Counted from the stretch's first letter, positions 5,082-41,981 are shown. The stretch is 64,000 nt of DNA from an uncultured cyanobacterium (GCA_963803805.1 CAWDOD010000003.1:603771-667770); one strand, 5' to 3'. Numbers and translations: made by a program. Notes: generated by a model not told the origin, from the sequence alone.

Positions 5082-5472
5082 GATTATCAAAGCCTAAATT
5101 ATGAATTCAATCGGTCTTGAAATTAATTTTCTTGGGCAATCTATTATTCTCTAGTTCTTCCCGATTGCTTTTTACTTCAGTAATCAATTAAGACATGACG
5201 AAGGATAAGAGATAAAAATTATTGTCTTGATTGTCGTTGGCTTAAGGAAGATTAATACTTCTACATCTGAACAAATTAACTCAATAGACTCATATAACTT
5301 TTCTAATTCTGGGTTTTGGCGATCACATTCATTCAACTAACGGGTTTAGGTATAATCGCTAACTATCTCTAAAAGCAGATAATTCCTTCAAAGATTTCTA
5401 ACAAAAAACCCCCTCTTAACCAAGAATAGAAGCATACTTGAGGTTAATAGAAGCTAGGTCAGGGGAAATATT

Positions 5473-5967
5473 ATGAACTATAGCAAAATTCTACTTGCTC
5501 TTGACCGCTTGCCCCAAGCCTCCATTATATTTGAACAAGCCCTAGTTATAGCTCAAAAATTTGACAGCAGTTTGATGATTTTTCATAATCTGAACTGCGA
5601 TACAGATGAAGAGGATAGCGTTGAGATTGGGACTTTTGGAGATGTTGATGTACGCGGTAGTAAATTAGGATATCGACAAGAACGTTTAGAAAAGAAAATC
5701 GAGGAAGTAAAAACTTGGTTAACAGGTTATTGTGAACAGGCCAAAGCTTTGCAAGTTAACACAGAATTCCATTATCAAGGAGGGATACCAGGTAGGCGAA
5801 TCTGCGATTTAGCAACTAGTTGGAATGCAGATTTAATTATTGTTGGTCACAGAGGATATACAGGCATATCAGAAGCTTGGTTAGGAAGTGTTAGTAGCTA
5901 TGTTCTCCACCACGCCAATTGTTCAGTTTTGGTGGTGCAAGGTCGTCAAGCAATTGAGAATATGTAA
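5473..5967 (+). CDS. Universal stress protein (UspA family)
   Basis: KILLALD...ADLIIVGHRG...LGSVSSYVLHHANCSVLVV. Confidence 0.92.
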   Translation: MNYSKILLALDRLPQASIIFEQALVIAQKFDSSLMIFHNLNCDTDEEDSVEIGTFGDVDVRGSKLGYRQERLEKKIEEVKTWLTGYCEQAKALQVNTEFHYQGGIPGRRICDLATSWNADLIIVGHRGYTGISEAWLGSVSSYVLHHANCSVLVVQGRQAIENM

Positions 5968-6023
5968 CCAGCTTAGATTATCTAAGTCTTTGACAATTCA
6001 CAGGCATTTGCCCTATTCGGTCT

Positions 6024-6629
6024 ATGAACAATGAAGTAGTTAAGTCTCAATATCTACAAATTCAAGGGACAAAAATTCATTACCTGGAAACAGTAGAAAT
6101 AAACACGCAGCCTATACTATTTTTGCATGGAGCAAGTTTTTGCGCTCAAACTTGGCAGGATATTGGTAGTTTGCAGGTTGTCCCCGAGAAAGGATATCGG
6201 GGAGTTGCTTTAGATTTACCAGGATATGGTGAGTCGGAGATATCATCGGGTTCTCGCGAAGAATTTTTATTAGAGTTTATTGAAACCTTAAAACTCAATT
6301 TACCCATAGTTATTTCCCCTTCTATGAGTGGTAGTTACAGTTTACCTTTTGTGGTCAACCACTCCCAAAAACTGCGGGGTTTTGTTCCTGTTGCCCCGGT
6401 GGGTATTTCTCGCTATGGTGAACAACTTAGAGGTATAGAACTACCAACTCTAGCAATTTGGGGTAGCAATGACCGCATTGTACCAGTTGCCCAAGCTGAT
6501 TTTTTGGTAGAAATTATGCCTAATGCCAAGAAGTTAGTTTTAGAAAATGCTGGTCATGCTTGTTATATGCGGGCGACTGCTGATTTTCATAAGCATTTAC
6601 TGGATTTTATTAAGGAATGCTGTACATAA
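6024..6629 (+). CDS. Alpha/beta hydrolase (ABHD14-like)
   Basis: LFLHGA, DLPGYG, SPSMSG nucleophile motif, WGSND, AGHACY. Confidence 0.88.
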   Translation: MNNEVVKSQYLQIQGTKIHYLETVEINTQPILFLHGASFCAQTWQDIGSLQVVPEKGYRGVALDLPGYGESEISSGSREEFLLEFIETLKLNLPIVISPSMSGSYSLPFVVNHSQKLRGFVPVAPVGISRYGEQLRGIELPTLAIWGSNDRIVPVAQADFLVEIMPNAKKLVLENAGHACYMRATADFHKHLLDFIKECCT

Positions 6630-6711
6630 TTAATTTGCTATTTTATTTCTTTAACCTGTATTAAAGTTTGTTAAACTCCTTTTAAGTTAAGATAGCTAGC
6701 TAGTTTTACCC

Positions 6712-7089
6712 ATGCTCAAGGAAATATTCCCTTTTCAAGTTAATCTAAATACAGTTGCGATCGCCGGGGCTTGTTTATGGTCTTTGGCATTGTATCTTGG
6801 TTTCGCAACCACAAGGGAGTGGATAACTCTGCAATTAGAACGTTGGTTTAATTTTGCTGAGCGATCGCTGTATACTTCAGCAGAGGAGTTTGAAAGAACT
6901 CGCCCCGCCAGGGAATCACAAAATGCTTTTTACGCTTCTTTATTTAGTATTTTGCCTTTCTTATTAATGGGATGTCTTTTTAATTTTGGTGTGGAATGGA
7001 GTTTAGGCCCTAGTTGGGGCATAAGTATGGGAATTTTGGCTTGTATGGGTTGTGGTGTTTTTGAGTTGGGGCGCAGGGATGCCCAATAG
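6712..7089 (+). CDS. Conserved cyanobacterial membrane protein
   Basis: RWFNFAERSLYTSAEEFERTR..RESQNAFYAS; three hydrophobic segments. Confidence 0.8.
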   Translation: MLKEIFPFQVNLNTVAIAGACLWSLALYLGFATTREWITLQLERWFNFAERSLYTSAEEFERTRPARESQNAFYASLFSILPFLLMGCLFNFGVEWSLGPSWGISMGILACMGCGVFELGRRDAQ

Positions 7090-7182
7090 CAGTTAATTAC
7101 TGATAGCATTTCTCAGACTCATAAATTAATAAGACCAGCCCTTTCAAGGTGTAGGTTTTAATTGTTAGTTTTGGGACAGAAT

Positions 7183-7367
7183 CTTAGTAGTAGAGACATG
7201 AGGTCGTTAAAATGACTTTGACACGCCGAATTTTTGATAAATAGCCCTCATCGTCACTAACTTTAACAGTTTGCTACAAAGATAGTTCCTCCTTCGACTG
7301 AACCCATAGGGCGGAATGTATCAGCGTCATGCCAAGGAAAACATTAGTAACCTCATCAGCTAGGTCA
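7183..7367 (-). ncRNA. ssaA: 6S RNA
   Basis: Minus strand forms a long interrupted rod: ATGAGGT/ACCTCAT, CTTGGCATGACGCTGA/TTCGGCGTGTCAAAG; about 185 nt; resembles cyanobacterial 6S; ends approximate. Confidence 0.85.
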
Positions 7368-7391
7368 ATCAAAATCACATAAAATAACCAA

Positions 7392-7841
7392 CTAGTGTTT
7401 AGTCAAGGAAAGAAATTAGGATAGAGAAAGAAAAGAAAATATAGAGAAAAAAGATGCAAAAAAAGTATATTGTGAGACTAACTGAGGAAGAAAGGAAAAT
7501 CCTGCATCAGGTAATACCGCCCAAAGCAGAGAGTGAATTTGTCGCTCAAATGGAAGAAATGCGGAGGTGGCGCGGTCAATTCTGGAGCGTCTTGAGTTTC
7601 ATTACACTCCTAAACACGGTAGTTGGTTGAATATTGCTGAGTGTGAATTGAGTGTCCTGACTCGTCAGTGTTTAAAAGGACGGCGCTTTGAAGATATTGA
7701 GAGGCTTCTTGGTAAACTCTTGCCCTGGGCTGCAAGTAACAATCAATCTCAACGAGCAGTAGACTGGCAGTTTACCACAGATGATGCTCGTGATAAGCTC
7801 AAGTCTCTTTACCCTAAAATTGTGCTTTGACAGAACACTAG
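7392..7841 (+). mobile_element. Internally deleted IS630-family element (about 450 bp, both IRs present)
   Basis: IRs CTAGTGTTTAGTCA / TGACAGAACACTAG; N-terminus MQKKYIVRLTEEER (7454) joined to C-terminus FHYTPKHGSWLNIAECELSVL...WQFTTDDAR. Confidence 0.88.
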
Positions 7842-7867
7842 ATTTCCCAACTAATAATTGATAAAAT

Positions 7868-7926
7868 GGGCAACCCAATCTAAATCTAGGCTTATCAACA
7901 ATACATAGGAAATGGGTTACTTCTAC
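7868..7926 (-). repeat. REP-like element, degenerate copy 1 (GTAG..GCGACCC family)
   Basis: GGGCAACCCAATCTAAA...GAAATGGGTTACTTCTAC, similar to 21630-21692 and 34607-34669. Confidence 0.65.
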
Positions 7927-7940
7927 CATTGATAACTGAT

Positions 7941-7999
7941 GCCTAACGGCAACGGCAAGCTGTACATTGATAACTGTAGGGCTTGCCATTGTCGAAGAC
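7941..7999. repeat. Two oppositely oriented copies of a ~25 bp dispersed repeat (TGTACGGCTTGCCGTTGTCGTAGAC family)
   Basis: GCCTAACGGCAACGGCAAGCTGTACA (7941-7966) and TGTAGGGCTTGCCATTGTCGAAGAC (7975-7999). Confidence 0.7.
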
Positions 8000-8100
8000 A
8001 TTATTGATCATTGAGAAGATTTGCTAGACTAAGGAGTGAGAAGTAGATTTCCTTAATTGGAATTTGTTTCTCGGCAGCGAGACATCATTTCATCCTTTGG

Positions 8101-8124
8101 AAGTGGGTCATACCCGCTTTTTTT
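8101..8124 (+). promoter_or_regulatory. rimP leader terminator-like hairpin
   Basis: AAGTGGGT-CAT-ACCCGCTT followed by a T-run just before rimP, as widely seen upstream of rimP. Confidence 0.7.
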
Positions 8125-8139
8125 GTTGCTAAAAATTCC

Positions 8140-8607
8140 ATGACTCATCCTCTCATTCCCCAAATTATCGATTTAGCTACACCTATTGCCGAAGAAATTG
8201 GTTTAGATGTAGTTGATGCGGTTTTCCAAACTAACAAAAACCCTCCTGTGTTACGAGTGGACATTCGCAACCTAAAAAGTGAAACCAGTGTTGATGATTG
8301 CGAAAAGATGAGTCGTGCTTTAGAACAGCAGCTAGATACCATAGGAATCATCCCTAACTCTTACGCTTATGTCCTAGAGATTTCGAGTCCTGGTATCTCC
8401 AGACAACTAACCACAGACAGGGAATTTATTTCTTTTAAAGGATTTCCCATCGCTATTAAAACCTATGCTCCCTATGAAGGAAAAAAAGAGTGGCGAGGCA
8501 GACTGAACCAAAGAGACGACCAAGCTGTGTATTTGAATCAAAAAGGTCGGGAAGTAAAAATTCCTCGTCAACTAATAGCTAAGGTGCAGTTAGACGATAG
8601 CGGTTAG
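8140..8607 (+). CDS. rimP: Ribosome maturation factor RimP
   Basis: MTHPLIPQI, DDCEKMSR, YVLEISSPG; position upstream of nusA. Confidence 0.95.
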   Translation: MTHPLIPQIIDLATPIAEEIGLDVVDAVFQTNKNPPVLRVDIRNLKSETSVDDCEKMSRALEQQLDTIGIIPNSYAYVLEISSPGISRQLTTDREFISFKGFPIAIKTYAPYEGKKEWRGRLNQRDDQAVYLNQKGREVKIPRQLIAKVQLDDSG

Positions 8608-34675: not shown

Positions 34676-36370
34676 CTAGAAGGTGAAGGTTGTTCTCAGT
34701 GTACCGATAAAGACATCTTCAGCATCGGAGTCTTGACCAACACTAGGCAACCAAATTATGCCAGGAGTAATGAGAATATTATTGCTTAACTTGTACTTGT
34801 AGAAAGCTTCTGCGTGATAAGCCCAATCTCGATTTGCTAAGGGTACTGTTGCCCCTTCAAATTCTAGGCCTCGCAAAGTTGGTTCAGCGCCAAAAGCTAA
34901 CCCAAGCATATTACCTTCTCCACCCAGATCCAAGAAGCCGAGGTTAGCATTAAATGTCCAAATATCCGCATCCCCTTTGCCGATTAAGCGAGCATCCATT
35001 TTGCCTACCCAACCATTAAGAATTAAGCTTTCGCTAAATCTTAAGGATGTTTCGATGCCGTAAGCATTGGTAGAAACAGCAGTAGCATCAGTAGTTGCGC
35101 TAACACCAGTCCAAGGAGAATTTGCTAAATTAGTGCCAACTCCTCCCAAGAAGAAGCCCCGTTGCTGTCCTGTTCCAGAATTTGCGATACCAGCATAAGA
35201 ATTGACATAGGTAAAAGCAACCTTGTAGCGATCGCCCAATGCAACTTGCGCTATACCTGAATAGTTGCCATCAAATAAACCTGCGCCTTCAGCAGGGTTA
35301 CTAGCTTCATTGCTGATGTAACCTAGGTCAACTCTGACTCCTTTAGTCGGTCTGAGAGAGATTGCAGCCCCTGCACCAAGGGGGCCAAGGCGATAGATGG
35401 GGTTACGTTCAGCATTAGTAGAAAGCGCCCCTGTCCCCCCTGCACCACTCTCAAAGTAAGGGTTGAGAGTATCGGTATAGTAGTGGTGTAAACCATTATT
35501 AGCAATGATTTGCACGGTAGCTTTATCGCCTACAGGAGTGATGTAACGCAGGATATCTATAGCAACGTTGTTATCATTATCCGCGCTGCCAGGAAAGTAG
35601 GTAAAGCGACCTTCATTAGTTGCTGTTGGAGCAAGAAGAGGTACAACATTACCAGCCTGGAGGCGAGTTTGTAAAGTATCTCTACCGGTGAAACTGGTCA
35701 TGAAGTTAAGGCGTACTCTATCTTGGAAGACAGTACTTTTACTATCACCAATGCCACCAAAGGCATCGGAAAGACCGAAAATAACCTCACCGGCTAACTT
35801 GGTAGTGGTAGAAAATTGATGATCTTCAACAAAAGCAACTCTACCTTCTAAATCGTCTACCCTAGCCCCTAATACAGCTAATTCTGCTTCAAACTCCTGG
35901 ACTAAACGACGTAAAGTCGCCAAGTCTCCATCTTCTACATCACCATAATTGGCTTCTACCCACTCCATACAACGACTTAAAGCGGCTGCAAACTCATAGC
36001 GGGTAATGTTGCGGTTGCCTTTGAAAGTTCCGTCAGGATAGCCCACAATACAGCCATACTTGTCAACCATTTTCTGTACAGCCTGAAACCAAAAAGGATC
36101 GATGTCAGAAAGTTGGGTAACACTGGTTACTTGTTCGAGAGGGTCAATGTCTCCTTGCCCTTCGGTACTGTATTCATTCAGTTGGTTGAGGATTTGGCCA
36201 TCTTCGGTTGGAGTTTGGGCTAGATAGTTTTCTGGGGTTAATTCCTGTTCAGAAATTTCTGAAACTAATGATTCTTCCGCGCCAACCAACGGAGAAATGA
36301 AGAAAGCTAAAGCTACCATAGCGGGGTAACTTAACCAAGAAATTCTATTGATTTTTTGAGAAGTATTCAA
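34676..36370 (-). CDS. Cyanobacterial outer-membrane porin (SLH + OprB-like)
   Basis: QVTSVTQLSD, YGCIVGYPDGTF..NRNITRYEFAA, QFSTTTKLAGEVIF, C-terminal GTLRTTFTF; TTG start after GAGGA RBS. Confidence 0.93.
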   Translation of the reverse strand: MNTSQKINRISWLSYPAMVALAFFISPLVGAEESLVSEISEQELTPENYLAQTPTEDGQILNQLNEYSTEGQGDIDPLEQVTSVTQLSDIDPFWFQAVQKMVDKYGCIVGYPDGTFKGNRNITRYEFAAALSRCMEWVEANYGDVEDGDLATLRRLVQEFEAELAVLGARVDDLEGRVAFVEDHQFSTTTKLAGEVIFGLSDAFGGIGDSKSTVFQDRVRLNFMTSFTGRDTLQTRLQAGNVVPLLAPTATNEGRFTYFPGSADNDNNVAIDILRYITPVGDKATVQIIANNGLHHYYTDTLNPYFESGAGGTGALSTNAERNPIYRLGPLGAGAAISLRPTKGVRVDLGYISNEASNPAEGAGLFDGNYSGIAQVALGDRYKVAFTYVNSYAGIANSGTGQQRGFFLGGVGTNLANSPWTGVSATTDATAVSTNAYGIETSLRFSESLILNGWVGKMDARLIGKGDADIWTFNANLGFLDLGGEGNMLGLAFGAEPTLRGLEFEGATVPLANRDWAYHAEAFYKYKLSNNILITPGIIWLPSVGQDSDAEDVFIGTLRTTFTF

Positions 36371-36458
36371 TTTGTTCCTCACACCTACATAAAACCACAC
36401 TTCATTTTTTGGGCATAGATAAAGATTCAGGGATTCTACTATGCTCCGTTACTTAAAG

Positions 36459-36500
36459 AAGTTAAATATATCCCTCAAAATAATTTGTATTCTTGGCTAC
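36459..36500 (-). promoter_or_regulatory. NtcA-activated promoter of the porin gene
   Basis: TGTA-TTCTTGGC-TACA (core 36487-36500), 22-nt spacer, -10 TAACTT (36464-36459). Confidence 0.8.
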
Positions 36501-36553
36501 AGTAAACCAAATTCTCATGCGGTTAATACATAGTTTTATACAAAAAGGTGATT

Positions 36554-37837
36554 TCAGCCCTGAAGTTTCGGTATAAAAGTACTGGAATTATGAAGCTGGA
36601 GACTTTCAACTGTAATTATATCTTGGGAGGATTGAGGGATTTTTTTGAGGGCAGATAAAGCGTGTAATCGCGTAGCTTGTTCTGGATCTTGGCATAGTTT
36701 GGTTAACAATGGAACCGCGCTTTTCTCTCCTAAAAATCCTAAAGAAGTTGTTAAAGTTTGTTTGATTAGGGGTTGCTCAATATGACTTTGTTGAGAATAA
36801 AAGAAGTGAATGAGGATTCTAGCAGCTTGAGGTTTTAATTCTGGTTTAGATATACGTCCTAAGTTGGCAATAATCTCCTGACAAACTGATACTCCACTTT
36901 GACTTAATCCTTGTTGAAAATAAGCTAGTACTTTTTCTGTTTCAATCCAACCTAAAGCGCGGACAATATCTATTTTCAGCAAGTCTGGAGTAGTAGGAGA
37001 TTGCAAAACCTCAAATAAAGCTTTTCCTGCTGCTTCGCTTCCTGCTTTTCCTACTCTTCCTAGGGCGATCGCGCTTTGTTTGCAGACTTCCCAAGAAAGA
37101 TCATAAAGTAAAGGACTCAGGTTTTTAACTAAATCAAATTGTTTCAATTGTTTAGCACGAATTCCTAAAGCTTTAACTGCTTCTTTCCTCACTTTTGCTG
37201 TTTCATCTCGCAGTGCTTCAATTAAAATTGATGGTATTTGAGGGTTATGAAAACTACTTAATGCTTCTATGGCGATGGCTCTGATTTCTGGATTTGGGTC
37301 GTTTGTTACTGTTAGTAAAGGTTGAATAGTTCCTGAGCGTCGAATATAAGCAAGGGAGCGTACTGCTAAGAGGCGAAATTTTTCTTCTAATAATAATTTA
37401 CTCAAAGCTTCTATGGCTGAGCTACCAATATTGATTAAAGCTTCAGCTACTGGTTCTAATAATTCTTCGTCGCTGCTATTGTGAAGTAATTCAATTAAAG
37501 CAATGACTACCTGGGGGTCACTATATTTACCTAAAATATTAATCGCAAACCAGCGAGTTTCCCAATCTTCTGCTTCGTTGTGTAGTATTTCTACCAAAGG
37601 GGCAATAGTTTTTGTTCCTAATTTCGGAAAAGTTTTAGCTACTTCCCAACGTTGTTGAAAGCTACTTTCTTTCAACACCCGTAGGGCTATATTAATTGCT
37701 TCATTTAAGTCAGGTTCACTTAGTTTAACTAGTTGAGATTTCTTGTTATCCAGGGGTAATTGTTGCAAATAGTGGTTAGCTAAAGTCCAGTTTCTAGCTT
37801 CGACAGTTAAACTAGCTTTTTCTAAAATAGTTGGCAT
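36554..37837 (-). CDS. nirB: HEAT-repeat (PBS-lyase-like) protein, probable NirB
   Basis: Multiple HEAT repeats (FQQRWEVAK, RWFAINILG, VRKEAVKALG); synteny with ntcB and cnaT as in Anabaena/Synechococcus nirB-ntcB clusters. Confidence 0.6.
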   Translation of the reverse strand: MPTILEKASLTVEARNWTLANHYLQQLPLDNKKSQLVKLSEPDLNEAINIALRVLKESSFQQRWEVAKTFPKLGTKTIAPLVEILHNEAEDWETRWFAINILGKYSDPQVVIALIELLHNSSDEELLEPVAEALINIGSSAIEALSKLLLEEKFRLLAVRSLAYIRRSGTIQPLLTVTNDPNPEIRAIAIEALSSFHNPQIPSILIEALRDETAKVRKEAVKALGIRAKQLKQFDLVKNLSPLLYDLSWEVCKQSAIALGRVGKAGSEAAGKALFEVLQSPTTPDLLKIDIVRALGWIETEKVLAYFQQGLSQSGVSVCQEIIANLGRISKPELKPQAARILIHFFYSQQSHIEQPLIKQTLTTSLGFLGEKSAVPLLTKLCQDPEQATRLHALSALKKIPQSSQDIITVESLQLHNSSTFIPKLQG

Positions 37838-38029
37838 AATTTTATGTCTGCACTTTGATAGTTAGTTTGCTGGTAACATTTTCTTGATATTTGTAATTAC
37901 CCCAAATAAATAAGCAATTTCTTGAACTTGTAGATGTAAGCTTGCGGATAATTTTATTCAAGATGCTTGAAATTTTGAATACTTAACTTCTAGTTTGAGC
38001 AAACTTTACTGTTTTTAACAAGTTTTGGG

Positions 38030-38094
38030 ATGCACTATGTGCATAATTATAATGCGATTAATGATTATGTTGGTGCTTCTGTAACTAAAGTTAC
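38030..38094 (+). promoter_or_regulatory. nirA-type NtcB + NtcA site pair
   Basis: ATGC-ACTATGT-GCAT (38030-38044) and GTA-ACTAAAGT-TAC (38081-38094), centres about 50.5 bp apart. Confidence 0.7.
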
Positions 38095-38100
38095 TATTTT

Positions 38101-38156
38101 GCTAATTGCTAGTGGCTAGTGGCTAGTGGCTAGTTGCTAGTTGCCAATGGTCAATT
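38101..38156 (+). repeat. Heptamer tandem array (GCTAGTG/GCTAGTT-like)x8
   Basis: GCTAATT GCTAGTG x3 GCTAGTT x2 GCCAATG GTCAATT. Confidence 0.85.
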
Positions 38157-38188
38157 TTCAATAGGGAAGAAGAAATGGTTTGTTTAAT

Positions 38189-39016
38189 TTAGTGGGAGTT
38201 AAGCCAAGTAGCAAAGTTGTAGTCATAGAAGCGATAAACTTCCTCTTGGTTAACCAAAAGAAACTCGTACCATTTTTCTAAAACCTCTTCAATGTCAAAT
38301 TCATCTTCTTTTAACTCTAGGGCTAATTGACTTAAGGTTAAGCCCTTGGGATGTTGGGAGAGGGCTTGTTTAACTTGCAGGGCTAGGGGAGAGTTGCTTC
38401 TCTGTTGCATTTGTTGCCAATGTTGGTGATAAAGTTCCTCCTTCTCCCCATTTCCCCAATTCCCCATCTCGCCAATCTCAACACTTCCACAGGGAGTTTC
38501 CGTTAGCAAGTGGGACTTGCCAGGGGGGAAGGGACGGCGTGTTAGGAGGAAGTAAACGCCGTCAGGGAGGTAGCGGGGCAGATAAAGGAGATTAGATCCG
38601 GGGGGTTGTTGGTGGTAGTTGAGTCTGTCTAGTCCGTCGATGGCGATGATTAGTTTTTGCTGGGGTTGGAGTTGTTGGCTGAGTTGTTGCAGCAATAGGG
38701 AGAGGGAGGCAGCGTTATGGTGGGGCAGGAGGGCATTGAGGGAGGGAAGAAACTGGTTAGGATCACGGTTAAGTTCAACAGGATAAAACAAGGTCACAAC
38801 CTCCCCATCTCCCCATGCCACCAGGTTAGCCACAACAGCACTTTTGCCGCTACCAGGAGGCCCAACAAGGGTGAAGTAACCTTTGCTGTGGCGTTGCCGG
38901 AAGTTGTCAAAGGCGGTGACAACAAGGTTACGAGGGACGAAGTTGCTGCGTTTGGCGGTGAGGAAGTTTTGCCAAGCAGGGGGATAAGGGTTAATGGCGA
39001 TGTTGCTTAGCTTCAT
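38189..39016 (-). CDS. Short STAND/AAA-type ATPase paralog with altered Walker B
   Basis: Walker A GPPGSGKS; Walker B IIAIDGLDR; LLYLPRYLPDGVYFLLTRRP shared with 39831-41198; C-terminal wHTH-like segment. Confidence 0.85.
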   Translation of the reverse strand: MKLSNIAINPYPPAWQNFLTAKRSNFVPRNLVVTAFDNFRQRHSKGYFTLVGPPGSGKSAVVANLVAWGDGEVVTLFYPVELNRDPNQFLPSLNALLPHHNAASLSLLLQQLSQQLQPQQKLIIAIDGLDRLNYHQQPPGSNLLYLPRYLPDGVYFLLTRRPFPPGKSHLLTETPCGSVEIGEMGNWGNGEKEELYHQHWQQMQQRSNSPLALQVKQALSQHPKGLTLSQLALELKEDEFDIEEVLEKWYEFLLVNQEEVYRFYDYNFATWLNSH

Positions 39017-39714
39017 TGGCTGATCACCATTTCTTGGGTTGTTTGTGATTCTTGGTTATTTGCCAACTCCTGTAGGCGTAAGAAATGCAATTGTCCTGAT
39101 GCTTCTCCGGCGATGATGGTTGAACCATCGGGAGTGATGGCACAACAGGGGATGTAACTATCTCCTGTGAAACTATTGATTAGTCTGCCGTTGTTGATAT
39201 CCCACACCTTCACTGTCTTGTCACGGGAACCAGAAATCACCTTCTCTCCATCAGGGCTAACTGCCACTGCATTTACCCAGTTGCTATGACCAGTAAAAGT
39301 ACGCAGCAAATTCCCACCAGGAGGAGTAAAGCTAGTGGTTAAGGGTTTTAACCAAGGCTGACTTTGCTGTTGTTCTGCTGCTTGCAACAAAGACTGTATC
39401 GCAGGAATGGCAAAACCTTGCATTCTCCCCCATAATTGCGTTGCTAATTGTTCCGGTTCCGCAATGAGAATATGGGCCGCAAGGCGTAGGGTTCCTTGAA
39501 TCAGTTTTAGGGTGTGACTTTCTTCGTCGTTGAAAGTATCCGAGGGGGCTAAGTCATAATCTTCAATGAGGGCTTGAATACCGAAGTTGGGGTGATGGAG
39601 TTTAGTTTTGAGGAAATTGAAGTCGGTGAGAAGTTGGTAGTATTTGGGGTATTTCCCAGCCTTAATGAGGTTGGATAAACAGCTTAAGTAGGCGCGTTGT
39701 TGGGCGGGGGACAT
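39013..39714 (-). CDS. APAF1-helical-like domain plus WD40 protein (only about 2 WD repeats)
   Basis: LLTDFNFLKTKL...QALIEDYD...LRLAAHIL...QLWGRM, then GHSNWVNAVAVSPDG...SGSRDKTVKVWD. Confidence 0.85.
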   Translation of the reverse strand: MSPAQQRAYLSCLSNLIKAGKYPKYYQLLTDFNFLKTKLHHPNFGIQALIEDYDLAPSDTFNDEESHTLKLIQGTLRLAAHILIAEPEQLATQLWGRMQGFAIPAIQSLLQAAEQQQSQPWLKPLTTSFTPPGGNLLRTFTGHSNWVNAVAVSPDGEKVISGSRDKTVKVWDINNGRLINSFTGDSYIPCCAITPDGSTIIAGEASGQLHFLRLQELANNQESQTTQEMVISQ

Positions 39715-39768
39715 TTTTTGAGTAAGGGGTAAGGAGTAAGGGCATGGCTAATCCGATGTATGATTTGG

Positions 39769-39829
39769 TCCCCCAAGTCTGGGGGGAACATATCTCTCAA
39801 AGTCCCCCAATTTGGGGGATTTAGGGGGC
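39769..39829. repeat. Double C/G-run hairpin dispersed repeat
   Basis: TCCCCCAAGTCTGGGGGGAA and GTCCCCCAATTTGGGGGATTTAGGGGGC. Confidence 0.65.
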
Positions 39830-39830
39830 A

Positions 39831-41198
39831 TTAACATTCATAAACACATTGGCTAATACGTTCATTCACCTCCTGAAATAACTTCCTGGTTTTCTTTAAC
39901 TCTCTTTGTTTGCTCAAAAACTGTTGGAAACTAGCATGATAAATGCTGTAACAGGTTTCTCCTTCTATGACTTGCTGCTTGATATATTCCACCCATTGTT
40001 CCTCAAGAATCTTCTCCGTCTCGTATGCCTCACAATCGGCGATCGCCGTAATCATTTCGCAGGTGGGAGGGGTTGCCATTTCCACCAGAATAAACAGGAT
40101 AATCGCCATCAGTTTCTGCCCCGCCTCCTCCATGCCCATACGCTGCCAATGGGTTTGATAATATTCTTGCAAACCTTGGGGTAACTGTTGCAAGGAAAGA
40201 TTATCATAATATCCTTCTGCTAGGGCAGGGATGACGTAGCGGAGATACATGAAGTTGTTTTCACTTTTCTCGGCTAGCTGGGTAATAAATTCTGCTTCTG
40301 TTAACTGCTTGGTGGTTAACCAAGTTTGCAAAATGTTTTGATAATCGGGATCTTCATGGAGGAAGAAACGAATATAAGCCTGAATATCCTGCCTATTAAA
40401 ATCCTGATACTCAGCAGCCCCTAAATCTAACTCTTGCATCGGCACTCCTGGATCTACCCGTAAACGTTTCTTACCTTGGTTGTAGGGACGGCGGGTTAAT
40501 AAAAAATAGATGTTTGGGGGCAAGGTTGTGGGAAGATGGAGTAAGTTACTGCTGGGTTCTTGTTCCACTTCATCTAAGGCATCAACCACAATCACTACCT
40601 TCTCCCCTGGGGTAAGCTTTGTAGCCACCTTTCCCAACAAAGTGGCCAAGTCATCCCGTTCCACATTTGGTAATTGATAACGCCGTTGCAGTTGTGGCCG
40701 CAAACTGTTTAAACATAATTCTGGGCGGTTGCGCCCTTCCACGAGGATATTAAAAAAGCAAGGGGCATAATAATCATCAACATATTTAGCTGCGATCGCA
40801 CTTTTCCCCATACCCGCATCGCCAATCACCGTAAAATAACCACAATCATTCTCTTTAATAAAAGTTTGCAAACCCTGCCGTACAAAATCTCGCCCCACAA
40901 AGATACGAGTTTTTTCCTTAATTAAAGCCTCAAATTCAGCAGGCAAACTTTCACCATACCAATCTCGATGAGCAACAATATCTATCGGTTCAAGTTTAAC
41001 CACTTGTGCAATACGGCGAATCATCCGCCTTTCTATACCCTTGGTACAAGCTTTTGTTCCTAGCAAACGTTTAATAGTATCAGTAGAAACCCCAGCTTTT
41101 GTCGCCAAGCTTTCTTGAGTAAGCCCAGCTTCTTTGTAAGCAGCAATTAATCTCTGTTTTCCGGCGGGACTTGCTTCTAATTTATCTGATTCCAACAT
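39831..41198 (-). CDS. HTH(XRE-like)-STAND/NACHT-like ATPase-wHTH protein
   Basis: N-terminal GLTQESLATKAGVSTDTIKRLL HTH; FVGRDF; Walker A GDAGMGKS; Walker B VIVVDALDE; ENNFMYL, LPQGL, IYHASFQQFL. Confidence 0.88.
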   Translation of the reverse strand: MLESDKLEASPAGKQRLIAAYKEAGLTQESLATKAGVSTDTIKRLLGTKACTKGIERRMIRRIAQVVKLEPIDIVAHRDWYGESLPAEFEALIKEKTRIFVGRDFVRQGLQTFIKENDCGYFTVIGDAGMGKSAIAAKYVDDYYAPCFFNILVEGRNRPELCLNSLRPQLQRRYQLPNVERDDLATLLGKVATKLTPGEKVVIVVDALDEVEQEPSSNLLHLPTTLPPNIYFLLTRRPYNQGKKRLRVDPGVPMQELDLGAAEYQDFNRQDIQAYIRFFLHEDPDYQNILQTWLTTKQLTEAEFITQLAEKSENNFMYLRYVIPALAEGYYDNLSLQQLPQGLQEYYQTHWQRMGMEEAGQKLMAIILFILVEMATPPTCEMITAIADCEAYETEKILEEQWVEYIKQQVIEGETCYSIYHASFQQFLSKQRELKKTRKLFQEVNERISQCVYEC

Positions 41199-41257
41199 CA
41201 GGGTTTAGTTATTACAGTATTTTCAATTAGAATAACCGGAAGTATTTAGTAGAGTCT

Positions 41258-41421
41258 AGGGCAGTAAAGTTTATGGATGCTGCCCTATTTGCCCTCTTGA
41301 GAGATAGGAAGTTGTAGAAATTAAACGTTATTTGCCTACCATAAAGGGAGTTTACATTTTCATCATTTTATACTCTTTAAAACAGGGCAGGCGATCGCAC
41401 TTAAGAAAATCCATTTGCCCT
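41258..41421. promoter_or_regulatory. Two candidate operators AGGGCA-N26-TGCCCT in a divergent promoter region
   Basis: 41258-41295 and 41384-41421 have identical half-sites and spacing; -10-like TATTCT (minus, 41234-41229) and TAAGAT (plus, 41429-41434) adjacent. Confidence 0.6.
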
Positions 41422-41447
41422 GGATAGTTAAGATTTGATTGCTTAGC

Positions 41448-41783
41448 ATGAAAACATCAAGTAACCAAGTAACTAAGCAACAAGCAACCATGAAACTCTT
41501 TAGCAAAAGACAACCAGTTACTCAATCTTCCTTACTAGAAAAAGAAGTAATTGAAGAGTTATTAAGACAAACACGCCTCACCTTTAACTTAGCTTTAGTA
41601 GTAAGTGCAGTCTCTTCTATGATTACTTTATCGGGAGTAGGTTTACTTTACTCAAACAAAATAACCGCAGCTAGCTTAACCACTGGAGTAGGCGTTTTAG
41701 CCACCGCAAGTAGCCTTCAATTCGCCAAACAAGCCAAAGGGGATCTCAAAGATATAACATCATGTTTGGAAAATAAGCATTAA
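41448..41783 (+). CDS. Small two-TM protein, resembling cyanobacterial TRADD-N-associated membrane domain
   Basis: ELLRQTRLTFNLALVVSAVS...GVGLLYSNKITAASLTTGVG...QFAKQAKGDL; start could also be 41490. Confidence 0.65.
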   Translation: MKTSSNQVTKQQATMKLFSKRQPVTQSSLLEKEVIEELLRQTRLTFNLALVVSAVSSMITLSGVGLLYSNKITAASLTTGVGVLATASSLQFAKQAKGDLKDITSCLENKH

Positions 41784-41785
41784 TT

Positions 41786-41886
41786 GCTAATGGCTAATGG
41801 CTAATGGCTAGTGGCTAGTTGCTAATGGCTAATGGCTAATTGCTAGTGGCTAATTGAGCATTGTAGGGCTTGCCCTTGTCGTAGAC
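41786..41886 (+). repeat. Heptamer array (GCTAATG/GCTAGTG-like)x10 followed by the 25-bp dispersed repeat
   Basis: Units run 41786-41855; TGTAGGGCTTGCCCTTGTCGTAGAC at 41862-41886. Confidence 0.85.
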
Positions 41887-41981
41887 ATCATTGATAACTG
41901 ATAATTAATGTGCAAAGTAACAATATTTTGCTACTCTAAGTAACCGACCCTTCCAAAGCAACTATCTTCAAATCACTGGCT

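Follow-up and report, generated by a model that had tools for sequence, protein, structure and literature searches.

This study concerns a module of four genes, here called A to D, in a 64,000-nt stretch of DNA from an uncultured cyanobacterium (GCA_963803805.1 CAWDOD010000003.1:603771-667770). The complete stretch is referred to as the window; all coordinates are window positions and the window's own genome measures 5.3 Mb. A first-pass annotation had described the module as an NLR-like receptor of the STAND type that is split over separate genes: a nucleoside triphosphatase (NTPase) with a helix-turn-helix (HTH) head (A), a WD40 sensor (B), a degenerate paralog of the NTPase (C) and a divergently transcribed membrane protein (D). 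The four-gene observation and its domains were confirmed (Table 1). The open reading frames (ORFs) of A, B and C lie exactly where they had been placed, the frame of D is likewise open, and the 3.6 kb of the module contain zero stops or frameshifts.

Table 1. Position and composition of the features that make up the A-D module.
Feature	Position	Strand	Description	Basis
Gene A	39831-41198	-	455 aa: putative XRE-like HTH (~11-74), NACHT NTPase, lid, winged helix, C-terminal helix	ORF, Pfam, alignment, AlphaFold, Foldseek
A-B spacer	39715-39830	-	116 nt; a dispersed GC-hairpin repeat occupies the 35 nt that adjoin A (39796-39830)	sequence
Gene B	39013-39714	-	233 aa: Apaf-1-HD2-like helical domain (~1-133), one WD40 repeat, cap blade	ORF, Pfam, homologs, docking model
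Gene C	38189-39016	-	275 aa: NACHT paralog without output or sensor domain	ORF, Pfam, alignment, motif census
Operator 2 (A side)	41256-41297	no strand	inverted repeat, half-sites like TAGGGCAG, third overlapping half-site	genome-wide matrix scan
Operator 1 (D side)	41382-41423	no strand	one good half-site CCAGGGCAAATGG plus degenerate partner with GCGATCGC palindrome	half-site listing; coordinates derived from spacer orientation
Gene D	41439-41783	+	114 aa from TTG: CyanoTRADDas_TM membrane protein, divergent from A	ORF, Pfam, hydropathy, four-ortholog alignment

Gene order was compared in two sets of loci. The first comprised 20 loci fetched from genomes of the same order as the window. For the second, 274 relatives of A were collected from species-representative genomes and the best 80 loci were analysed, using hidden Markov models that had been built from the first set; these 80 loci derive from Microcoleus, Nostoc, Scytonema, Tolypothrix, Brasilonema, Crocosphaera, Trichodesmium, Moorena, Okeania and other genera. 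Within the first set, a separate B, consisting of a helical head and WD40, was found directly after A in 18 of the 20 loci (one of the others is rearranged and one lies at a contig edge), a C-like gene after B in eight and a divergent D-like gene in four. Among the best 80, a separate B directly follows A in 78 loci, the other two ending at a contig edge, and A is fused to B in none. Measured on first-start ORF calls, the stop of A and the start of B abut or overlap (a gap of at most 11 nt) in 58 of the 78 loci, and C follows in 51 of the 55 loci that have at least 5.5 kb of downstream sequence. Since 78 of the 80 loci, drawn from many genera, show this order, the split is the standard form of the family and more than a chance arrangement. 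The possibility that the separation of A and B reflects a frameshifted pseudogene was rejected because the split recurs in both sets (18 of 20 loci in the first, 78 of 80 in the second). Thus, the A-B-C operon is conserved in many, mostly filamentous, cyanobacteria. The first-pass annotation had named fused A-B homologs and a poorly conserved neighbourhood as findings that would speak against a split system; what we found is that such fusions are rare, that C is a conserved neighbour and that D is kept specifically beside those A proteins that carry an HTH.

True A-B fusions were identified in four of the 22 longer A homologs (P0005, P0006, P0017 and P0001, the last with the winged helix partly missing). 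In 11 of the remaining longer homologs the A module forms the C-terminus of a larger protein, and seven have other C-terminal parts; further Pfam accessions in these relatives are presumably those of the caspase and EAD10 domains. B and C occur as a single polypeptide in L066:8176-11745, L110:2005-5388 and L112:8324-11182, and also in L073:6473-8437. Though rare, these fusions connect B with both A and C and provide 'Rosetta-stone' support for a joint function, rather than being the sign of a broken gene. The B-C fusions have the composition helical head, WD40 and C-type NACHT, which is an unusual order as the sensor lies N-terminal to the NTPase. In 12 of the 80 loci, mostly of Microcoleus, two to four tandem B genes follow one A and precede C (L056, L058, L062, L065, L067-L069, L073, L074, L077, L099 and L114), which looks like an array of alternative sensors served by one NTPase.

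The sequence of A matches the NACHT family at 29.5 bits (cut-off 26.7) and both NPHP3_N and AAA_22 above their cut-offs; a match to AAA_lid_TANC1 (25.2 bits) remains under the cut-off of 29.1. The Walker A (GDAGMGKS) and Walker B (DALDE) motifs are invariant in the homolog alignment, with DALDE present in 77 of 79 copies of A in the family, and together they conform to the signature of the NACHT clade (Walker A GxxGxGK[ST] plus Walker B D[GAS]hDE). An AlphaFold model based on a 19-row alignment (predicted local distance difference test, pLDDT, 88.3; predicted template modelling score, pTM, 0.80) shows a helical bundle at residues 11-74, followed by the NTPase, the lid, the winged helix and a last helix, with helices and a beta-hairpin at 362-429. 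A Foldseek search with this model returned Apaf-1 as the top match, together with CED-4, MalT (in seventh place), Avs3, ZAR1, NLRPs and NOD2. The NTPase and winged helix of the first-pass annotation are thereby upheld; its HTH is discussed below. The sole paralog of A in the window's own genome is C.

In B, Pfam places APAF1_C at residues 13-89 (25.2 bits, cut-off 22.8) and WD40 behind it (64.2 bits). An HD2-like helical domain (helical domain 2) directly precedes the WD40 part, as had been proposed. Of the WD40 array, however, the window copy of B contains one canonical repeat and the terminal cap blade of the family, thus two blades. Comparison with 19 homologs of 196-920 aa (one of them cut by a contig end) revealed that the helical head is conserved in all and that the cap blade ends 15 of them. 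In the family plan, a head of ~130 residues precedes WD40 units of 42 residues each, the number of which varies, and the last element is a conserved cap blade with an HFLRL-like motif at its end; relatives often have 13 WD40 repeats and up to 20. In each of four long B proteins the units share 74-86% identity with one another, and the changes are concentrated at positions 4-5, 7, 23 and 25. Near-identical WD40 repeats with focused variation are known from the fungal HET-E/NWD receptors.

A modelled complex of A and B, one of the checks suggested in the first-pass annotation, passed its controls. Folding A(86-455) together with B(1-135), using our own alignments, yielded a median of 0.71 versus 0.00 for the best of three controls; 58 of 80 solved complexes and two of 110 mismatched pairs attained that mark. 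The runs shared at least 89% of the contacts and the partner pLDDT was at least 80. The predicted contacts involve residues 373-382, 411-416 and 441-455 of A and residues 2-24 and 43 of B, which places the winged helix and the last helix of A against the first helices of B, at the winged-helix/HD2 junction. Considering the fact that A and B correspond to the halves of a chain that was solved as one piece in Apaf-1, the pass may reflect likeness to Apaf-1; the model shows this likeness and supports binding, short of proof.

C scores above the cut-off for AAA_22 and NACHT and is, as had been stated, a paralog of the NTPase of A without the HTH. It does not possess any other head or a sensor, and also misses the last helix of A. 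Its start overlaps the stop of B by ATGA, the coupling that had been pointed out before. The Walker A of the window copy is intact. Its Walker B reads DGLDR, in which the terminal Glu is lost, so that the D[GAS]hDE signature is not present. The same holds for the family, with Walker A present in 49 of 50 copies of C, the terminal Glu of Walker B in none of 49, and an Asn in place of the fourth-position Asp in nine. The label 'degenerate' thus fits the Walker B and the lid (see below) and not the Walker A. Judged by these motifs, C is a NACHT-derived paralog that can probably bind nucleotide but hydrolyse it poorly, and its likely part in the assembly is that of a regulatory or scaffold subunit.

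D belongs to CyanoTRADDas_TM (PF20712; 56.7 bits, cut-off 24.3) and was recovered as a single copy in the genome search (57.4 bits). The frame that had been assigned to it, 41448-41783, was correct and the ATG at 41448 is in frame; the ORF runs from the TTG at 41439, and the ATG at 41490 is at least as likely a start according to the alignment with four orthologs. We found no TRADD-N domain in A, B or C by Pfam, nor in 18 A homologs that were scanned whole, and the literature search returned no paper that names CyanoTRADDas or PF20712. D is likely a membrane effector.

The N-terminal heads of A differ between genomes. The first set contained XRE-type HTH, NNH5, EAD4 and HEPN_Swt1 heads, and others without a domain match. 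Typing of the A N-terminus covered 77 of the 80 loci (all except L063, L080 and L094) and yielded 20 XRE-type heads, 16 of a LuxR-like class of 125-133 aa, 38 NNH5 heads and three others (L108, L111 and L113). The members of the 125-133-aa class show at most weak GerE matches, and the class profile matches the LuxR-type DNA-binding domain of ChrA (E 0.0045). D was found divergent upstream in 16 of the 20 XRE-type loci (including L054, where an extra A-like gene lies between D and A), in three of the 16 LuxR-like loci and in none of the 38 NNH5 loci; two further loci that homology places with the XRE-like ones, L113 and L063, have D as well. D is thus linked only to the HTH subtypes of a larger, effector-swapping family. 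In L054 the A-like genes are arranged in tandem (5450-6913 and 6974-8356), D is divergent from the first, and an operator pair as described below is not present. The divergent slot of the LuxR-like loci is mostly occupied by a gene for a HATPase_c_2 protein of ~208 aa that is anti-sigma-kinase-like (L064:5801-6424(-), L077:6057-6680(-), L041:3217-3849(+)), followed by a response regulator in the LuxR-like loci of Microcoleus. The N-terminus of this protein (MNFNLF-like in the Microcoleus loci checked) resembles that of the D orthologs; it looks as though the divergent gene had retained its start and received another body.

The spacers between D and A in XRE-type loci share inverted half-sites with the consensus cTAGGGCAGATAGGt, in which the GGGCA and TGCCC cores are 30-31 nt apart. 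In the usual layout there are two such inverted pairs, 45 nt apart, of which the A-side pair bears a third overlapping half-site and the D-side pair is located, in many loci, ~70 nt from the start of D. A half-site matrix was made from 42 half-sites of 14 other loci, with the window excluded, and paired matches were required. The window's genome contained 2379 single half-site matches and exactly one pair, which is operator 2 in the A-D spacer (15.7 and 14.9 bits, with a GGGCA-TGCCC spacing of 31 nt). Of the 22 XRE-type loci, 19 had pairs, none of which lies more than 430 nt upstream of A; as 12 of the 22 scanned loci had trained the matrix, that part is circular, and among those outside the training seven of ten match. 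No pairs were found in the 42 NNH5 or other loci (525 kb), and the LuxR-like loci had them in two of 16 cases, ~1 kb upstream. L037, whose HTH has diverged, displays the same layout with an altered half-site, TAGGGAATTT, and three of the four LuxR-like loci examined have direct repeats spaced 22-23 nt instead. The degenerate half of operator 1 contains GCGATCGC at 41385-41396, which we take to be the highly iterated palindrome of cyanobacteria. The conserved operator pair, unique in the genome, provides independent support for a transcriptional output, and together with the restriction of D to HTH forms it speaks for the transcriptional control that the first-pass annotation had suggested.

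The observed gene order, domains, fusions, operator and the link of the operator to the HTH subtypes support the overall interpretation of the first-pass annotation. We consider it probable, with room for doubt, that A, B and C constitute a split NLR-like switch of the NACHT clade of STAND proteins, of which the HTH head controls D and the operon itself. In the proposed mechanism A would supply the active NTPase and the output domain, and A and B would reconstitute an NLR non-covalently, with the Apaf-1-type helical domain of B docking on the winged helix of A. Binding of a ligand by the WD40 propeller(s) of B would be followed by NTP-dependent assembly, with C probably joining as a hydrolysis-poor subunit. 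Through assembly, multiple HTH heads would come to sit on the paired operators, the inverted repeats located in the 240 nt that separate A from D, and the transcription of D, the likely membrane effector, and of the A-B-C operon would change. The ligand, the binding of DNA by A, the sign of the regulation and the toxicity of D are inferred in this scheme.

The HTH could also serve for autoregulation of A-B-C only, like the XRE heads in many toxin-antitoxin and defence loci. D would then be a neighbour without functional connection, a protein that confers immunity or serves as an anchor, or a membrane sensor that acts upstream. Operator 2 indeed abuts the upstream region of A itself, and the HATPase_c_2 gene takes the divergent slot in most LuxR-like loci. 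Moreover, D is missing in four of the 20 XRE-type loci and therefore not obligatory, and three of these four (L055, L060 and L095; not L074) have retained the operator. On the other hand, D is found beside two HTH classes and never beside the 38 NNH5 loci, a second operator is present on the D side in many loci, and the HTH-type A carries no other effector domain, because of which the system would lack an output if D or its replacement gene were removed. We consider autoregulation alone unlikely.

Several further observations weigh against a split switch that controls D, next to the XRE-type loci without D, the three XRE-type loci without an operator pair and the partial circularity of the operator scan. 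The HTH head of the window A, claimed by the first-pass annotation, is below the Pfam cut-offs (HTH_31 19.7 against 27, HTH_3 18.5 against 23), and it is the orthologs that exceed a cut-off (HTH_26, 28.7, 30.3 and 38.7 against 22). Of the two transmembrane helices that had been ascribed to D, one segment is strongly hydrophobic and the second weakly so. Operator 1 is half degenerate and below the threshold in the pair scan of the 80 loci, and the operators of the window are 126 nt apart instead of the usual 45, with ~81 extra nt in between. A scan with a generic sigma-70 consensus detected no site in the A-D spacer, and the region was no richer in such sites than shuffled sequences. Hexamers resembling a -10 element occur just outside each operator, towards D and towards A, but they were placed by eye only; as the consensus scan called none there, promoters beside the operators are putative. 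Finally, related loci are kin, and all locus counts thus overstate independence.

The window copy itself is reduced. One reading of this, possible but the less probable one in our judgement, holds that the family functions as described and that this copy is an eroding relic, with frames that are open yet unable to sense or signal. B has two blades versus ~13 in many relatives; with only one canonical repeat and a cap, where seven or more blades are needed, it could not close a propeller alone, and the window copy may therefore no longer sense. In addition, B starts ~10 residues later than its homologs, and the A-B spacer, which is usually at most 11 nt, measures 116 nt and includes the 35-nt hairpin repeat, of which about ten further copies are present in the genome. 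Furthermore, C misses ~90 residues of the lid, the operator region shows the degeneration and the wider spacing given above, and the module is missing from the closest genomes. Against erosion stand the absence of stops and frameshifts over 3.6 kb, the intact Walker A and B of A and the good scores of operator 2. Likewise, a short B (266-327 aa) recurs in L033, L044, L045, L046, L108 and L118, and the C of L036 has the same lid deletion. Because of this shared deletion the short forms may be tolerated variants, and the length of C does not decide on erosion. The four-gene description given earlier was right about the parts, and it was silent on the collapse of the sensor, the repeat insert between A and B and the restriction of D to HTH subtypes.

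The distribution of the module is patchy. Of 60 other genomes from the order, 22 contain a homolog of A (E 1e-10 or better), and none was found in the same-genus and same-family genomes searched. The slot between aspS and the gene for a HEAT-repeat protein measures 4.1 kb in the window (37838-41981), where it contains the A-D module, versus 10.6 kb in the same-genus locus L129 (G001:C7:942900-953700), where it holds unrelated genes (a hydrolase, an AI-2E transporter, parts of an LPG synthase and a permease). Since the same-genus slot holds unrelated genes and a homolog of A is missing there, the module is an accessory insert. The G+C content over B and C (0.47-0.51 at 38000-39500, versus 0.36-0.38 in the flank at 36000-38500) and the strong G-C skew are consistent with a foreign origin. 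The neighbouring gene at 36554-37837(-) encodes a 427-aa HEAT/PBS-lyase-type repeat protein (HEAT_2, 148.7 bits), the G001 ortholog of which contains one in-frame TAA. Downstream of C, at 38100-38150, heptamer tandem repeats are present with a unit like CCACTAG on the minus strand; short tandem repeats of this kind are common in filamentous cyanobacteria.

STAND NTPases with an HTH are classic transcription activators, and A could accordingly be an ordinary factor of the MalT/AfsR type, which responds to an endogenous metabolite or a developmental cue and regulates a membrane protein, without any role in conflict or death. This would agree with the place of MalT in the fold search and with the housekeeping flanks of the module (aspS and the HEAT-repeat protein). 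It would also agree with the finding, which weighs against a defence role, that neither PADLOC 2.0 nor NCBIfam names a known defence system. The assignment to an already named system, which the first-pass annotation had listed as a possible outcome, thus did not occur: the only matches were fragmentary ones of A to Avs1b, in PADLOC 2.0 at 40.9 bits over positions 308-544 of a profile of 1924 positions and in NCBIfam at 28.5 bits versus a cut-off of 1500. An ordinary regulator is nevertheless difficult to reconcile with the occurrence of the same NTPase core with HEPN_Swt1, EAD4 and NNH5 heads in other genomes, with the near-identical repeats that show focused variation and the two- to four-fold multiplication of B in 12 of 80 loci, with the patchy distribution, and with the domain family of D, whose Pfam name links it to TRADD-N conflict proteins. 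We regard this explanation as improbable. Instead, the output swapping, the diversifying repeats, the patchy distribution and the text of the literature on conflict systems (PMC7159879, PMC8195603) lead us to suggest that the split switch acts in conflict, either in defence or in regulated cell death.

The comparison with known systems is informative on what is shared and what is not. With Apaf-1 and CED-4 the family has in common the order NTPase, winged helix, helical domain 2 and WD40, the presence of APAF1_C in B and the top fold match of A. Apaf-1, however, is a single chain of the AP-ATPase clade with a CARD output, whereas here a NACHT-clade protein is cut between the winged helix and HD2 and has an HTH output. 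The MalT/LAL/AfsR regulators, NTP- and ligand-gated STAND oligomers that act on repeated DNA sites, are the likely working analogy. Their NTPase is of another STAND clade and shares one chain with a TPR-like sensor, and MalT and LAL regulators carry a C-terminal LuxR HTH; in the present family the HTH is N-terminal, the NTPase has the NACHT signature and the WD40 sensor is encoded separately. Pfam gave no support for membership of the MalT/LAL group, and MalT is only a general STAND fold match. Resemblances to eukaryotic receptors concern the cooperating NLR paralogs in NAIP-NLRC4 and the plant sensor/helper pairs, the transcriptional output of CIITA and the near-identical WD40 repeats with few hypervariable positions of HET-E/NWD, but these are eukaryotic single chains and homology is claimed for the shared domains only. 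The Avs (AVAST) proteins are also STAND NTPases with a C-terminal sensor, and the partial match to the Avs1b profile and the fold match to Avs3 are in line with this; unlike the present family they are single chains with nuclease or protease heads, and the Avs1b score is far under the cut-off (28.5 versus 1500).

Two further groups of prokaryotic systems were compared. The text of the preprint on bNACHT proteins (bioRxiv 10.1101/2022.07.19.500537, Kibby et al.) describes the D[GAS]hDE signature, NNH, EAD and HEPN heads, an HTH (in a figure legend), repeat sensors, and enrichment and multiplication in cyanobacteria. The NACHT module, the variable heads and the repeat sensors are thus shared, whereas the bNACHT proteins of that text are single chains and the present family has a separate sensor gene, sometimes in two to four copies, a NACHT gene with a degenerate Walker B, and a DNA-binding head with an operator. 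No description of the split layout was found in the preprint text; figures and tables were outside that search, and the clade tables may list the family. The ternary and EAD conflict systems of multicellular bacteria, as described in the text of Kaur et al. (PMC7159879, PMC8195603), combine a constant NTPase with swapped effectors and are enriched in filamentous cyanobacteria, and active/inactive STAND pairs as well as HTH domains that hint at a transcriptional response in some TRADD-N systems are mentioned (PMC8195603). The effector-swapping logic, the active/inactive pairing, the HTH and the hosts therefore correspond, but those systems centre, according to the same text, on vWA-MoxR, GTPase, EACC or TRADD-N, and A, B and C contain no TRADD-N. 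The A-B-C(+D) layout was not found in the text of either paper, and a term search of the supplementary files of PMC13581612 and PMC8195603 gave no match to it; the text of PMC13581612 does note Apaf-1-like WD40 STANDs in cyanobacteria. More generally, the literature search, which did not reach figures and preprint supplements, returned no description of a split operon of the A-B-C kind, of sensor genes in tandem, of fused B-C proteins or of an operator linked to a gene for a protein with two transmembrane segments. The first-pass annotation, to which no characterisation of the four-part architecture was known, agrees with this outcome of the search. NACHT proteins with NNH, EAD, HEPN and HTH heads had already been catalogued in cyanobacteria (Kibby et al.).

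The family is the main result of this analysis, with the window copy as a reduced example. The NLR-like proteins known from bacteria consist of one chain, which includes the effector. If the proposed reading is correct, the family would add a sensor in trans that is multiplied in the form of gene cassettes, a pair of an active and a degenerate NACHT protein and a transcriptional output via a defined operator. Tentatively, and with less confidence than in the split switch as such, one might go further and view it as a modular NLR with swappable and multiplied genes for hypervariable WD40 sensors (one to four per NTPase), in which the weakened NACHT paralog is obligatory and, in the HTH subtypes, the assembled receptor itself fires a membrane-toxin gene via a dedicated operator. 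On that view the operon would unite prokaryotic counterparts of the sensor/helper NLR pairs and of transcription control of the CIITA type. With an operator of ~42 bp that occurs only once in the genome and with a small target gene, the activation state of an NLR would become readable by a simple reporter, and such a reporter would open a ligand search for the WD40 sensors of cyanobacteria, which are numerous and uncharacterised.

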